Shown: positions 3,987 to 32,146 of the stretch, one piece after another
Position numbering within the stretch: position 1 is the first letter of the stretch
Layout of the letters: every line of letters starts with the position of its first letter
Sequence record: PV040721.1
DNA from: Escherichia phage BUCT825
Direction: 5' to 3' (one strand)
Length of the DNA: 44,228 bases
Made by a program: the position numbers and the translations under genes
Notes under the pieces: generated by a model
Databases searched by the model: none
Seen by the model: the letters and a program-made list of their open reading frames with translations, nothing else
What the model was told of the DNA's origin: nothing

Positions 3987-4015
3987 ACTATAATAGCTAA
4001 CTATTCAGGTGTCAA
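3987..4015 (-). promoter_or_regulatory. sigma70-like promoter, minus strand (-35 TTGACA 4010-4015, -10 TATAGT 3987-3992)
   Basis: Reverse complement TTGACA-N17-TATAGT; conserved with 578-606 and 7083-7111. Confidence 0.65.
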
Positions 4016-7082: not shown

Positions 7083-7111
7083 ACTATAATAGCGAACTAT
7101 TCACATGTCAA
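7083..7111 (-). promoter_or_regulatory. sigma70-like promoter, minus strand (-35 TTGACA 7106-7111, -10 TATAGT 7083-7088), divergent from the Cro-like gene
   Basis: Reverse complement TTGACATGTGAATAGTTCGCTATTATAGT. Confidence 0.65.
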
Positions 7112-7175
7112 TGGGCTTTTCTAAAATAATTAATATGGTACTATTCACATATCAACTGACTAAGGAGTAACTGAC

Positions 7176-7391
7176 ATGCAACCATCTGAACTAGGCATCC
7201 GTGTAGAGCAACGCCGTAAAGAACTCGGTATCTCCCAGCGCCGTCTGGCTGTTCTGGCCGGCGTTTCCCAGGGCGCGATTAACCAGCTTGCACTCGGGGT
7301 AACTCAGGACGTACGCCCGGCAACGCTGTTTAAACTGGCGGAAGTGCTGGAAGTAGACGCCAAGTGGCTGGCGCTAGGTGAAGGGGCGTAA
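7176..7391 (+). CDS. XRE/Cro-like helix-turn-helix transcriptional regulator (71 aa)
   Basis: HTH signature ISQRRLAVLAGVSQGAINQL; SD TAAGGAG upstream; only plus-strand gene in a minus-strand module. Confidence 0.75.
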   Translation: MQPSELGIRVEQRRKELGISQRRLAVLAGVSQGAINQLALGVTQDVRPATLFKLAEVLEVDAKWLALGEGA

Positions 7392-9725: not shown

Positions 9726-9959
9726 TTATTCCAGGTCTTCTAAAGTAGCGGTCATTCCGCGAACTTCGGCAACAGCACTATATTTCCCGCCAACATTTTT
9801 CACGACACCAGATTTAACCAGTACCTTCAACGACCCTTCAATAATGGCGGAACTATAGTACCTAAAATAACTACGGCGCAAGTCCATAACGCTGCACGAC
9901 CCTTTTTTACAGGTTAATGAAACGACTGCCGTAAATACGCGGGACTGGAACTCGGTCAT
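9726..9959 (-). CDS. hypothetical protein (77 aa)
   Basis: ORF with stop/start overlap to upstream gene. Confidence 0.5.
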   Translation of the reverse strand: MTEFQSRVFTAVVSLTCKKGSCSVMDLRRSYFRYYSSAIIEGSLKVLVKSGVVKNVGGKYSAVAEVRGMTATLEDLE

Positions 9960-10126
9960 TTTACATTCTCCTTAATCCACGCTTCCACTTTCTCCGGGTT
10001 GAAAGTACCCGGCTGCCGGCGGCCCATAATACGGATACAACAATCCGGGAACTTCCCACTCTTTAACCAGTTATTCAGCGTGCGACGGGTAACCCCAATA
10101 CGCTCGGCTACTTCATTCTGTGTCAT
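9956..10126 (-). CDS. small HTH DNA-binding protein (AlpA/excisionase-like fold), about 56 aa
   Basis: MTQNEVAERIGVTRRTLNNWLKSGKFP; ATG at 10126 with GGGGGT SD; the longer ORF to 10159 would overlap the -10 of its own promoter. Confidence 0.6.
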   Translation of the reverse strand: MTQNEVAERIGVTRRTLNNWLKSGKFPDCCIRIMGRRQPGTFNPEKVEAWIKENVK

Positions 10127-10202: not shown

Positions 10203-10231
10203 TTGACATTAAGAAAATCTTCGTTTAAGGT
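10203..10231 (+). promoter_or_regulatory. candidate promoter, plus strand (-35 TTGACA, 17-bp spacer, -10 TAAGGT)
   Basis: Perfect -35 with correct spacing; weak -10; back-to-back with the minus promoter. Confidence 0.35.
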
Positions 10232-10467
10232 GCTTCTATATCTTAGTTACTTTGATTCCTGTTCACCTTGTAAAACCCGCCGAAAACGAGCGCCCAACGC
10301 GAAGTGTTAGGCGGCAGTTTACTGAACATTCGAATTATCGTAACTTTCCTTCCTAAGTATCTCCGGTTGCCCTGGGCAAGCTCTATTCCCATCGGCGGAA
10401 TATATCTTAAGTATCTGATTTTCTTAAAGTGCCGTAGATTCGCAACCGTAAAAATGTAACGATTATT

Positions 10468-10488
10468 GGGCAGGCTTAGGGCCTGCCC
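10468..10488 (+). terminator. Hairpin GGGCAGGC-TTAGG-GCCTGCCC followed by TTTAGTT (terminator-like) inside the 450-bp noncoding region
   Basis: 8-bp perfect stem read directly. Confidence 0.35.
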
Positions 10489-10570
10489 TTTAGTTACCAA
10501 GTAATAAGAATAAAGGCACAACCCTACCTGAAGAATCACAACGGCAACGTAACCATTTTCAATGAATCTC

Positions 10571-10599
10571 TTGCACACCCCAACATAATAGGTTACTAT
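10571..10599 (+). promoter_or_regulatory. Early-type promoter (-35 TTGCAC, 17-bp spacer, -10 TACTAT followed by TCAC)
   Basis: TTGCACACCCCAACATAATAGGTTACTATTCAC; near-identical copies at 12262-12290 (+) and 32118-32146 (-). Confidence 0.6.
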
Positions 10600-10633
10600 T
10601 CACTTATTGAAACTAGACAGAGGAGTTAGGGTT

Positions 10634-12261: not shown

Positions 12262-12290
12262 TTGCACACTAAGATAGAATAGGCTACTAT
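12262..12290 (+). promoter_or_regulatory. Early-type promoter (-35 TTGCAC, 17-bp spacer, -10 TACTAT followed by TCA)
   Basis: TTGCACACTAAGATAGAATAGGCTACTATTCA. Confidence 0.6.
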
Positions 12291-12322
12291 TCATTTACAC
12301 AGACGAGACAGAGGAAAACGAA

Positions 12323-15979: not shown

Positions 15980-16001
15980 ATCTGTTTTCTGTAATGACTA
16001 G

Positions 16002-16030
16002 TTGACTATTATCCTCGACCCTATTATATT
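16002..16030 (+). promoter_or_regulatory. sigma70-like promoter (-35 TTGACT, 17-bp spacer, -10 TATATT)
   Basis: TTGACTATTATCCTCGACCCTATTATATT upstream of the 16065 gene block. Confidence 0.55.
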
Positions 16031-17416: not shown

Positions 17417-17587
17417 ATGTTCAGTGACATCAACGCGGCAATCGAGGAAGCAATATGGCGTCGTTACAACGGCGAGCAACAACGGCACTTCTGCCTGGTG
17501 CAACGTGGGAACATGATTGCTGTAGTGCAGGACCGCGATAACAAATATCCGAATGCGATGTGGACAACGAGGAATTTCTTAGGATGA
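17417..17587 (+). CDS. hypothetical protein (56 aa)
   Basis: Manual translation MFSDINAAIEEAIWRRYNGEQQRHFCLVQRGNMIAVVQDRDNKYPNAMWTTRNFLG. Confidence 0.35.
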   Translation: MFSDINAAIEEAIWRRYNGEQQRHFCLVQRGNMIAVVQDRDNKYPNAMWTTRNFLG

Positions 17588-17820
17588 TTACCAGCATTCC
17601 TAACCTGATTAAAGAATTTGGCACGATGGCCGAGACGTGCCGACAAACCGGCATCAACGAAATGACGATTGCGAAGTACAGCAAAGACGTGGACTGCGAG
17701 CGCCACGTAATTTATAACAACCGTCTGATGACGCACGTTAAAACAAGCCCGGTGTTATTCACGCGCCGGGGTATCACTAAAACTGAGCAACGTATCGCAC
17801 GAGAGGAGAGCGGGGAATGA
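17584..17820 (+). CDS. small HTH-like protein (78 aa), last gene before the late region
   Basis: ATGA overlap; helix-turn-helix-like segment ETCRQTGINEMTIAKYSKD. Confidence 0.45.
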   Translation: MITSIPNLIKEFGTMAETCRQTGINEMTIAKYSKDVDCERHVIYNNRLMTHVKTSPVLFTRRGITKTEQRIAREESGE

Positions 17821-22442: not shown

Positions 22443-22903
22443 TGATGGGCTTTTTCAAAGTAACTGATGTACCGTCGCGTCGCGTAGTCCAGTACGCCCG
22501 TGTGCCTGGCTCCGGCGAGAACGTGGTATTTATTGAAGATGAAAGTGTACTGGGTGCGCCCGTAGACGATATGCCGTTTGCAGATAAAACCGGTATTGCG
22601 CTACCGGCGGCGGGCATGCTTTATGAGATTCAGTACCTGGCGGATGCTGGTGATGTGTATTTCTCCGTACAACCGCAGGACGCTGAACTGGCAGACGGCA
22701 GCGCAAATATCGCTGTCGAAGTTAAGGCGGGCAAAGCACCATATGCGCTGACCTGGTACAAAGACGGGAAGGAAGTGGTTAACGCCCCGGAAGAGGCTTT
22801 GTCTCTGACGGTTAATTCTGTTGGGGAATACTTCGTTAAAGTTACTGATGCCGATGGTGTAGAGGCCGTCAGTAAAGCGGCGAAGGTCACTAAGCCAGAA
22901 TAA
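22442..22903 (+). CDS. Ig-like domain protein (153 aa), possible capsid decoration/accessory protein
   Basis: C-terminal Ig-like pattern PYALTWYKDGKEV...VGEYFVKVTDADG. Confidence 0.55.
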   Translation: MMGFFKVTDVPSRRVVQYARVPGSGENVVFIEDESVLGAPVDDMPFADKTGIALPAAGMLYEIQYLADAGDVYFSVQPQDAELADGSANIAVEVKAGKAPYALTWYKDGKEVVNAPEEALSLTVNSVGEYFVKVTDADGVEAVSKAAKVTKPE

Positions 22904-22908
22904 ACTGA

Positions 22909-22929
22909 AGCCCCGAAAGGGGCTTTTTA
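22909..22929 (+). terminator. Intrinsic terminator (AGCCCC-GAAA-GGGGCT followed by TTTTAG)
   Basis: Same hairpin as at 21340. Confidence 0.65.
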
Positions 22930-22978
22930 GTGCCTGTGATTATTCCAGTTATTCCACTCAATTGTAAATGTTGGAATA

Positions 22979-22994
22979 AACTATTCGAATAGTT
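22979..22994. promoter_or_regulatory. Perfect 16-bp palindrome AACTATTCGAATAGTT (candidate operator) overlapping a -35 hexamer
   Basis: Self-complementary sequence read directly; half-site ACTATTC recurs in several promoters. Confidence 0.5.
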
Positions 22995-23021
22995 GACTTT
23001 TCACTTAAAATGTGCTAAGCT
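22993..23021 (+). promoter_or_regulatory. candidate promoter (-35 TTGACT, 17-bp spacer, -10 TAAGCT)
   Basis: Hexamers and spacing read directly; weak -10. Confidence 0.35.
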
Positions 23022-23201
23022 CCACCTGAGCTTGTGAAGTATGAACAAGCGACCGCGGCGCGGGCAGGTAACGGAGCGGGGCGTTAGCCCTGAGTGTAGT
23101 TACGCTGACGCGTTCGGAAGGGCCATACTCTATTGCTTGTGTAAAAAGTAACTGGTTTACTGAGATTACGCCGTTTCTATGTTTAAATGATAAGGACTAG
23201 C

Positions 23202-23226
23202 GCCCCGCTTTATGGCGGGGCTTTAC
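23202..23226 (+). terminator. Intrinsic terminator/attenuator (GCCCCGC-TTTATG-GCGGGGC followed by TTTACTTAT) immediately upstream of the Rz RBS
   Basis: 7-bp GC stem plus U-rich tail. Confidence 0.55.
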
Positions 23227-23245
23227 TTATCGAGAAAGGAGAAAC

Positions 23246-23632
23246 ATGAATATTAAAGCAACTGTCGTAGCAGGAGCATGTTACATCATCCTGTTATACA
23301 CGCACGGCTACTATCAATACCGCAGCGGCTGGAACGGAGGCAGGGCTAATCTAGTTTCGCAGCAACAGCAGAAAGCACAGGCTGAGTTAGCGAAGAAAAC
23401 ACAACGGCAGCAGCAGGACGAATCAAAGGCCGCCGCCGCTGACAACGAAGGCAAGACGAAATCAGAGGTGATTACCCGTGAAGTCGTTAAGTACATTAAA
23501 ACGCCTGGCCGCAGCGTGTGCACTTTCGACGATGCTCGCGTCCTGCTCAAGTCCCGCGCCGTCGCAAACGCCAATTCCATCCCCGGATACGACGATGATG
23601 CAGCCGCCATGCAAACTGGCCGCGCCAAGTAG
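23246..23632 (+). CDS. Rz: i-spanin (Rz-like), 128 aa
   Basis: N-terminal TM anchor VVAGACYIILLY, Gln-rich coiled-coil region, overlapping out-of-frame lipoprotein gene. Confidence 0.7.
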   Translation: MNIKATVVAGACYIILLYTHGYYQYRSGWNGGRANLVSQQQQKAQAELAKKTQRQQQDESKAAAADNEGKTKSEVITREVVKYIKTPGRSVCTFDDARVLLKSRAVANANSIPGYDDDAAAMQTGRAK

Positions 23633-23741
23633 CGATGCCGATGAGGATTTAGCCATTGACGTTCAGAACACAGAATGTGTACGGCAACTGCGTCTGAAAG
23701 TGTTCATGTTGCAGGATTACGTGAGGAATATTCTGGAATAG
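23478..23741 (+). CDS. Rz1: o-spanin (Rz1-like lipoprotein), 87 aa, GTG start, overlapping Rz in another frame
   Basis: Signal peptide with lipobox LASC, Pro-rich mature part SSPAPSQTPIPSPD; SD AGAGGTG before GTG. Confidence 0.65.
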   Translation: MKSLSTLKRLAAACALSTMLASCSSPAPSQTPIPSPDTTMMQPPCKLAAPSSDADEDLAIDVQNTECVRQLRLKVFMLQDYVRNILE

Positions 23742-23823
23742 TTGCCTTGCATGTTGGAATAATTTATTCTTGACATGTAAATCCGGGTGGCCCGGGTTCC
23801 AACGTCCAGGGGACATACTGACT

Positions 23824-32087: not shown

Positions 32088-32117
32088 TTTAAACCCCTTC
32101 ATTGTTGGTGTAAGTGA

Positions 32118-32146
32118 ATAGTACCCTATTATATTGGGGTACGCAA
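32118..32146 (-). promoter_or_regulatory. Early-type promoter on minus strand (-35 TTGCGT, 17-bp spacer, -10 TACTAT followed by TCAC) driving the antisense cassette
   Basis: Reverse complement TTGCGTACCCCAATATAATAGGGTACTATTCAC, nearly identical to the promoter at 10571-10599. Confidence 0.6.

Follow-up and report, generated by a model that had tools for sequence, protein, structure and literature searches.

Lambdoid Cro and CI operators (OR and OL) are short dyads that lie over a core promoter element, in phages that encode a small XRE/Cro-type HTH protein. Class II activators have their canonical position at -41.5. In the genus Kagunavirus, phage fBC-Eco01 is the described case: seven conserved 20-mers, PP1 to PP7, were recognized there with PHIRE, with the consensus tgAATAGTa-ccTATTat-T (PMC9825357). 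An RNA-seq paper on Kagunavirus reports transcription as gene-level classes only (PMC12645636), and our literature search turned up no work on small RNAs or regulator binding in phages of the Jersey-like or K1G-like groups.

We analyzed a window of 44,228 nucleotides, the whole stretch of sequence record PV040721.1 from Escherichia phage BUCT825; it is an essentially whole 44 kb genome of a K1G-like Kagunavirus (subfamily Guernseyvirinae). Like the lambdoid phages, it has a short dyad that overlaps a core promoter element, here by 2 nt, and a gene for a small XRE/Cro-type HTH protein. A sequence-only reading had reported a perfect 16-bp palindrome overlapping the -35 element of a candidate promoter, here called P_X, and had taken it for the strongest candidate operator for a dimeric phage regulator in the genome. 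The operator reading of the palindrome is largely not supported. On balance, and by a modest measure, we favor a different account: the palindrome is an incidental perfect dyad in a constrained, -35-proximal region upstream of the host-type promoter P_X, and selection keeps the stretch, not its symmetry. The elements of the locus are as follows.

22908..22930, plus strand: terminator of the upstream Hoc-like gene (-8.1 kcal/mol, then a T5 run)
22941..22987, no strand assigned: upstream word array, with TATTCC (22941), TATTCC (22950), TGTAAAT (22964-70), and GGAATA-AAC-TATTC (22973-86)
22979..22994, no strand assigned: palindrome AACTATTCGAATAGTT, at the junction of module b (...CTATTC) and module c (GAATAG...)
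22993..23021, plus strand: promoter P_X, with -35 TTGACT (22993-98), a 17-nt spacer, and extended -10 TGcTAAGCT (23013-21; TG at 23013-14, hexamer TAAGCT at 23016-23021)
23028..23232, plus strand: structured non-coding RNA or leader of about 205 nt, with a 5' hairpin (23030-50), a P2-P3-P4 domain (23051-23122), and a 3' hairpin (23202-23221)
23202..23231, plus strand: the 3' hairpin, a GC-rich stem, and its tail UUUACUUAU

Over 1.4 kb around the palindrome, the window is 92-98% identical to K1G-like Escherichia phages. In K1G, the homologous intergenic region has a Hoc-like head-decoration gene on one side and Rz-like spanin genes on the other, the latter followed by scaffold and major-head genes. 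For comparison, 47 related loci were gathered via the i-spanin protein, together with GenBank records. The RNA falls into two sequence lineages. Type 1 accounts for 180 GenBank phage records; type 2, typical of Salmonella Jerseyviruses, accounts for 268. At the more distant spanin loci of Klebsiella klb_E and Dhillonvirus HK578, no such intergenic region is present. Host mimicry is rejected, as positions 22935-23235 showed no similarity to 5,426 E. coli genomes. No tRNA or tmRNA genes were found in the window, and the whole window gave no Rfam match at gathering thresholds.

The terminator of the Hoc-like gene insulates P_X from read-through. The left boundary of the conserved module is 22941, and relatives diverge immediately to its left; this spot is a hotspot for the insertion of extra genes. 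Most type-1 relatives carry there a minus-strand gene for a 75-aa membrane protein (605-890 in contig L006, and homologous loci), inserted between the Hoc-like gene and the conserved module. That gene has its own early-type promoter, which carries an inverted repeat of the (G/T)AATAG-N4-CTATT(C/A) type.

P_X reads as a genuine, conserved promoter of the host sigma70 type. Its hexamers, its spacing (17 +/- 1), and its TGn motif are those of a sigma70 extended -10 promoter, and its -35 matches the consensus at 5 of 6 positions. A generic promoter scan of the window did not call P_X, because the -10 matches at only 3 of 6. Across 39 distinct type-1 sequences, both hexamers are invariant and the spacer is the most variable segment; type 2 keeps T(A/T)GACT-17-TGtTACGCT at the same position, and early-region paralogs of P_X and of the 5' part of its RNA keep TTGACT-17-TAAGCT. 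The homologous site in fBC-Eco01 was independently predicted as a host promoter, HP1 (PMC9825357). The proposal of a promoter at 22993-23021 thus holds: its position is conserved across lineages, it precedes a covarying RNA, and it coincides with the HP1 prediction.

Three further observations concern promoter-like sequences at this locus. The -10 reads TAnGCT, TAAGCT in type 1 and TACGCT in type 2, and the G-C at -9 and -8 is unusual and appears conserved. In Serratia phage Tsm2, the corresponding region has TATGCT, without a convincing -35 upstream. On the minus strand, a promoter-like TTTACA-18-TGgAATAAT (22968..22939) points back into the Hoc terminator; both of its hexamers are kept in type 2, but most type-1 relatives lack the -10, since homology stops at 22941.

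The palindrome itself lies exactly where the sequence-only reading had placed it, and the overlap it described is correct: the last two nucleotides of the palindrome are the first two of TTGACT, and no more of the -35 than these is covered. It is a perfect 8+8 dyad, of a length within the operator-type range (14-18 bp); with a start site predicted near 23028, it spans -49 to -34 and is centered at -41.5. No other perfect palindrome of at least 16 bp occurs in the window. Dinucleotide shuffles yield 0.70 such palindromes per window, with at least one in 53% of shuffles; because about 8% of the window is non-coding, about 0.06 would be expected in non-coding DNA, by a post-hoc estimate. The 16-mer is 75% A+T, and the 52 bp around it hold five TATTC/GAATA words, a crowding that makes a local palindrome likelier. 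In view of the shuffles and of this crowding, the mere existence of the palindrome carries little weight. A hairpin or cruciform role was considered and rejected, as the DNA fold amounts to only -2.4 kcal/mol.

Operators of the Cro/CI type recur at the promoters they regulate, and the palindrome does not: the window has no second copy with up to two mismatches. Among the bacterial genomes of 185,579 species, the exact 16-mer has 52 scattered matches, fewer than expected by chance, and the representative genomes of E. coli and Salmonella do not contain it. In IMG/VR, 33 of 37 matches are this same locus.

Comparison with relatives separates the stretch from its symmetry. The type-2 lineage keeps the promoter, the upstream TATTCC words, and the RNA, and has lost the symmetry of the palindrome; it reads CTTTATTCAAAAAGTA in this place, where 3 of 8 symmetric pairs remain. 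Over the 16-mer, the two types have 10 of 16 bases in common (TATTC, AA, AGT), and all six differences are one-sided. An intermediate contig, L031, has AACTATTCTAATGGTT, in which the symmetry is broken without compensation; each of the other five type-1 variants is likewise one uncompensated change. These six variants are all singletons and affect 6 of 16 columns. The resulting 0.010 differences per column per sequence compares with 0.13 in the P_X spacer, which has high-frequency variants, and with 0.049 in the TATTCC array, all counted over related sequences and not as independent events. The equivalent stretch is also stable within type 2. The low variation in type 1 and the stability in type 2 indicate that -49 to -34 is constrained in both lineages, and not for symmetry.

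If the stretch were free of constraint, the 16-mer would be functionless, a chance palindrome in an AT-rich spacer that has been conserved through the recent horizontal spread of a promoter and RNA module of 300 bp. The chance expectation of 0.7 per genome and the exchange of the module between backbones agree with this, as does the share of variable columns (6/16), which is similar to that in neighboring segments. We nonetheless regard a functionless 16-mer as improbable: its variants are singletons next to a spacer with high-frequency variants, the equivalent stretch is stable within type 2 too, and 10 of 16 positions are common to lineages whose flanking genes are only 62-75% identical.

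The regulators of these phages do not follow the palindrome. In the window, these are the XRE protein, an HTH_17 protein (9956-10126, minus strand), and a NinH-like protein (17584-17820). Salmonella phage ER11 has the type-1 module with the palindrome intact; its XRE, HTH_17, and NinH-like proteins share 98-99% identity with their counterparts in the Jerseyvirus AG11, which lacks the palindrome, and only 51-86% with those of the window. The palindrome is thus accompanied by either of two XRE variants, only 51% identical to each other, and no particular HTH regulator travels with it. Judged from these sequences, the promoter and RNA module appears to work with either regulator set. ER11 (L061) has an AG11-like (L054) backbone, with a portal protein 98% identical to that of AG11, and a promoter and RNA module of the Kagunavirus type; this mosaic points to horizontal exchange of the 300-bp module between backbones. 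The early-region paralogs give a second comparison. Their homology with the P_X locus starts exactly at the -35; upstream, where they read ...gatgctactggta, they are unrelated and have no palindrome.

Alternatively, the palindrome could be a true dimeric-regulator site on the late promoter copy of type 1, used by a class II-type activator or by a repressor that occludes the -35. The perfect dyad is the only one of its length in the genome, its 2-nt overlap with the -35 and its center at -41.5 would suit either role, and only singleton variants are seen among the 39 type-1 sequences. Furthermore, conservation of the type-1 16-mer equals that of the core hexamers and exceeds that of the upstream word array, which would also fit a specific protein site, and the lack of a palindrome in the early paralog could give copy-specific regulation. 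Such a site would require a host protein common to E. coli and Salmonella, or an unrecognized phage protein present in both backbones. We judge it unlikely, since the symmetry is lost without compensation in type 2 and in L031, no particular HTH regulator co-occurs with it, and there is no second genomic copy. In addition, the 16-mer is absent from the E. coli and Salmonella representatives, its 52 bacterial matches are below chance, and P_X, with a 5/6 -35 and an extended -10, does not look activator-dependent.

A better candidate for an operator is found elsewhere in the genome, at the early promoters. The features that bear on it are the following.

582-597, 3991-4006, 7087-7102, 7131-7146, 10586-10601, 12277-12292, and 32116-32131: the seven strong sites of the early repeat (G/T)AATAG-N4-CTATT(C/A)
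7176..7391, plus strand: XRE/Cro-type HTH gene, 71 aa (Pfam HTH_3, E = 2e-12)
22987..23002, no strand assigned: GAATAG-TTGA-CTTTTC, a weak match to the early repeat (one mismatch) that overlaps the -35 of P_X

The half-site ACTATTC had been described as occurring singly in the early promoters. It is indeed present in the promoters at 4000, 7096, 7140, 10595, 12286, and 32116, and the window has 10 occurrences against 4.35 +/- 2.1 expected; it is not single, as in each of these promoters it forms one arm of the 16-bp inverted repeat. In three of them, the arm coincides with the -10 TACTAT. The repeat has 16 strand-matches in all, against 0.6 expected, and its seven strong sites overlap the spacer and -10 of strong promoters. 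AG11 preserves it as TAATAG-N4-CTATTA. It is the same element as the PHIRE 20-mers of fBC-Eco01, and so had already been noticed there.

Two copies of the repeat, 7087-7102 and 7131-7146, sit in the divergent promoter region of the XRE gene, which by analogy would be the classical arrangement of an autoregulated repressor. If the XRE protein reads one of the two elements, it is most likely the early-promoter repeat and not the palindrome, and the repeat is the best operator candidate in the genome. The two elements differ in arm geometry: the arms of the early repeat are 10 bp apart, center to center, and those of the palindrome are everted (CTATTC/GAATAG) and 6 bp apart. On a weight matrix built from 11 early sites, the palindrome scores -7.6 and does not match the repeat. 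The palindrome is probably not the operator of the phage's Cro-like repressor. Its ranking as the strongest candidate operator has to be given up, as the symmetry is unconserved, the paralog lacks it, no regulator is coupled to it, its half-sites have another geometry, and a better candidate exists.

The matrix also draws attention to the sequence just to the right of the palindrome's center, which could be the functional operator: GAATAG-TTGA-CTTTTC would be bound by the XRE protein over the -35, shutting P_X together with the early promoters, and the left half of the palindrome would be irrelevant. It has one mismatch to GAATAGNNNNCTATT and ranks 9th genome-wide, right after the promoter sites from which the matrix was built. 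Another promoter, P_F, has the same architecture, with TTGA as N4, and is conserved in AG11; the two repeat copies beside the XRE gene also fit. The score of 13.8, set against a shuffled-genome best of 12.0 +/- 2.4 (maximum 16.5), is nevertheless within the range of shuffled genomes, and with a matrix from AG11 sites only, the rank falls to 18th. The type-2 equivalent is a degenerate AAAAAG-TAGA-CTTCTA, with the best match shifted by 3 bp, and the resemblance may stem only from the shared TAGTTGACT flank of the -35. An operator at 22987-23002 is, in our estimate, quite doubtful.

That flank is part of a wider pattern, in which the sequences that make up the palindrome recur at other promoters.

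15996..16030, plus strand: P_F, GACTAG-TTGACT-17-TATATT (weight-matrix score 15.1)
23736..23770, plus strand: P_S, upstream of the scaffold gene, TTGCCT-17-TATTCT

Module b ends in ...GGAATAAACTATTC, and module c consists of GAATAG followed by a -35 hexamer. The sequence ATGTTGGAATAAnnTATTC occurs exactly twice in the window, at 22968 and 23751 (0.11 expected), and GAATAGTTGnCTT exactly twice, at 22987 and 23736. The second members of these pairs build P_S, 780 bp downstream of the palindrome: module c, GAATAG+TTGCCT, supplies the -35 (23742-47), and the spacer and the -10 TATTCT (23765-70) come from module b, ATGTTGGAATAATTTATTC. There the modules are 2 nt apart and in the opposite order. P_S is invariant in both lineages, and phage TS6 conserves it where the surrounding sequence is entirely non-coding; Serratia phage Tsm2 has the counterpart TTGCCC-17-TATATT. 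P_S partly overlaps the end of the o-spanin gene. A (G/T)AnTAG flank next to the -35 is common to P_F, P_X, and P_S, and AG11 has TAATAG-TTGACT at the place homologous to P_F. P_F corresponds to HP6 of fBC-Eco01 (PMC9825357).

Upstream of the palindrome, TATTCCAGTTATTCC, TGTAAAT, GGAATA, and TATTC are invariant between the type-1 and type-2 lineages. The window has just two clusters of TATTCC/GGAATA words, and 300 simulations produced none; in both the window and AG11, the two clusters stand at the homologous P_X and P_S sites. The array is not rigid, since the spacing from GGAATA to TATTC is shifted by one base in L031.

The palindrome thus looks like an incidental junction, where the ...CTATTC of one recurring promoter module meets the GAATAG... 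of another. In the account we favor, its symmetry would arise from the chance abutment of modules b and c, and P_X would transcribe a conserved, structured RNA of about 200 nt ahead of the spanin, scaffold, and capsid genes. The -49 to -34 stretch would most likely tune the strength or the timing of this promoter copy. RNA polymerase may touch it, through the alpha-CTD and sigma region 4, as an AT-rich surface; alternatively, it may belong to an array of (G)GAATA/TATTC(C) words that some factor recognizes. This account draws on the sequence, the conservation of the promoter, the structure of the RNA, the loss of symmetry, the recurrence of the modules, and the absence of regulator coupling.

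Downstream of P_X, the predicted transcribed region is better conserved than the genes on either side: identity is 94-98% over the 220 nt that lead up to the spanin ribosome-binding site, against 76-94% in the flanking genes. The RNA fold has a z-score of -2.5. A covariance model of the 72-nt P2-P3-P4 domain, built from type-1 sequences only, retrieves the type-2 leaders at full length with E about 1e-7. In the alignment of this domain, 97.7% of cells are paired, 10 of 23 pairs are changed on both sides (at most 2 in slid controls), and the covariation score reaches 0.367 (shuffles: 0.131 +/- 0.016); these counts lean towards structure because the alignment was fitted to the model. An independent MAFFT/RNAalifold analysis gave the same compensatory pairs. 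A 36-aa open reading frame at 23041-23151, annotated in Shashou, TU03, and others, was rejected as coding: it is frameshifted, truncated, or without a start in at least eight relatives, and absent in all type-2 sequences.

Compensatory changes are also seen in the stem of the 3' hairpin, from C-G to G-C, U-A, or A-U. Its type-1 tail makes a poor U-tract, and the type-2 tail, UUAGCGUAU, has none; for this reason, the hairpin probably serves as a leaky terminator or as a stabilizer in front of the i-spanin ribosome-binding site, and the RNA may at the same time be the leader of the spanin, scaffold, and capsid genes.

The structured RNA is undescribed, with no Rfam family, no E. coli homologue, and no literature found. 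An Rfam search of 22900-23260 by E-value gave at best E 0.6-4, to hairpins only, with no match at the gathering threshold. With covariance model R1, neither Serratia Tsm2 nor Salmonella TS6 gave a match at E <= 1; by eye, Tsm2 has GCCCUAGCG...CAUUCGGAA in common.

The window itself has one copy of the RNA. About 50 Kagunavirus genomes have a second, paralogous copy of the promoter and the 5' part of the RNA in the early region, between the HTH_17 gene and the rightward early operon, with a different 3' part (L005 601-830, L059 538-790, L060 542-800). In phage Golestan (L060, about 745-770), this 3' part contains a (CACT)n microsatellite of about six units. The slot of the paralog corresponds to 10203-10491 of the window, which holds TTGACA(10203-08)-17-TAAGGT(10226-31), about 240 nt without a convincing open reading frame, and a terminator at 10468-10488; a second non-coding RNA may be encoded here. 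In AG11, a promoter is annotated at the matching place.

A more far-reaching possibility joins the RNA and the palindrome into one system. P_X and the palindrome would control a family of structured, promoter-proximal RNAs present in more than 400 Guernseyvirinae genomes, in one or two paralogous copies each. The RNA would influence transcription or expression of the lysis and head genes downstream, working either in cis, as a put-like antiterminator, or in trans, as a small RNA; the palindrome would be a control site peculiar to the late copy, bound at -41.5 by a dimeric factor of the host that E. coli and Salmonella share. We offer this as a long shot.

Taken alone, the palindrome matters little: it is one more AT-rich element beside a -35. 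To take it for an operator would misdirect binding experiments, and the early repeat is the element worth testing with the Cro-like protein. What is noteworthy is the structured RNA, together with the modular late-promoter architecture common to P_F, P_X, and P_S. In the annotated records inspected, the RNA is unrecognized as such, and several mis-annotate it as a 36-aa protein. Guernseyvirinae are in wide use as therapeutic and biocontrol phages, and their transcriptional program is essentially unstudied; this locus provides handles on how the timing of lysis and head genes is set in a phage that lacks an RNA polymerase of its own.

How does the locus relate to the described systems? With PP1 to PP7 of fBC-Eco01 (PMC9825357), the palindrome has in common the words GAATAG and CTATTC and a promoter location in the same genus; the arms there read GAATAG-N4-CTATT, and those of the palindrome are the everted CTATTC/GAATAG. 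Class II activator sites (CRP and FNR at -41.5, lambda CI at OR2 on PRM, and the Mu C late promoters) likewise place a dyad at about -41.5, beside the -35. To our knowledge, the palindrome has no sequence match to the CRP, FNR, lambda CI, or Mu C consensus sites. P_X also departs from class II activator-dependent promoters: the center falls at -41.5 given the predicted start site, but the -35, at 5/6, is near consensus. The proximal subsite of an UP element, of the rrnB P1 type, is likewise an AT-rich sequence directly upstream of the -35, as is the 16-mer with its 75% A+T; the type-2 AAAAAG at -41 to -36 resembles the A-tract consensus of the UP element, and the type-1 sequence has no A-tract.

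The transcript invites another comparison. In lambda PR'-6S RNA-tR' and in HK022 putL/putR, as here, a strong, constitutive-looking promoter leads into a non-coding RNA of about 200 nt, then a hairpin, and then lysis and head genes, and the two paralogous RNA copies that precede two operons in some genomes add to this likeness. Unlike those systems, the RNA here has no sequence or Rfam similarity to them, the type-2 hairpin lacks a U-tract, and no Q-like gene was identified. Finally, a lambdoid operator is found at several promoters of its phage and evolves together with the repressor that binds it, whereas the palindrome is unique in its genome and its symmetry is lost in sister lineages. The element that behaves like a lambdoid operator in this phage is (G/T)AATAG-N4-CTATT(C/A), not the palindrome.
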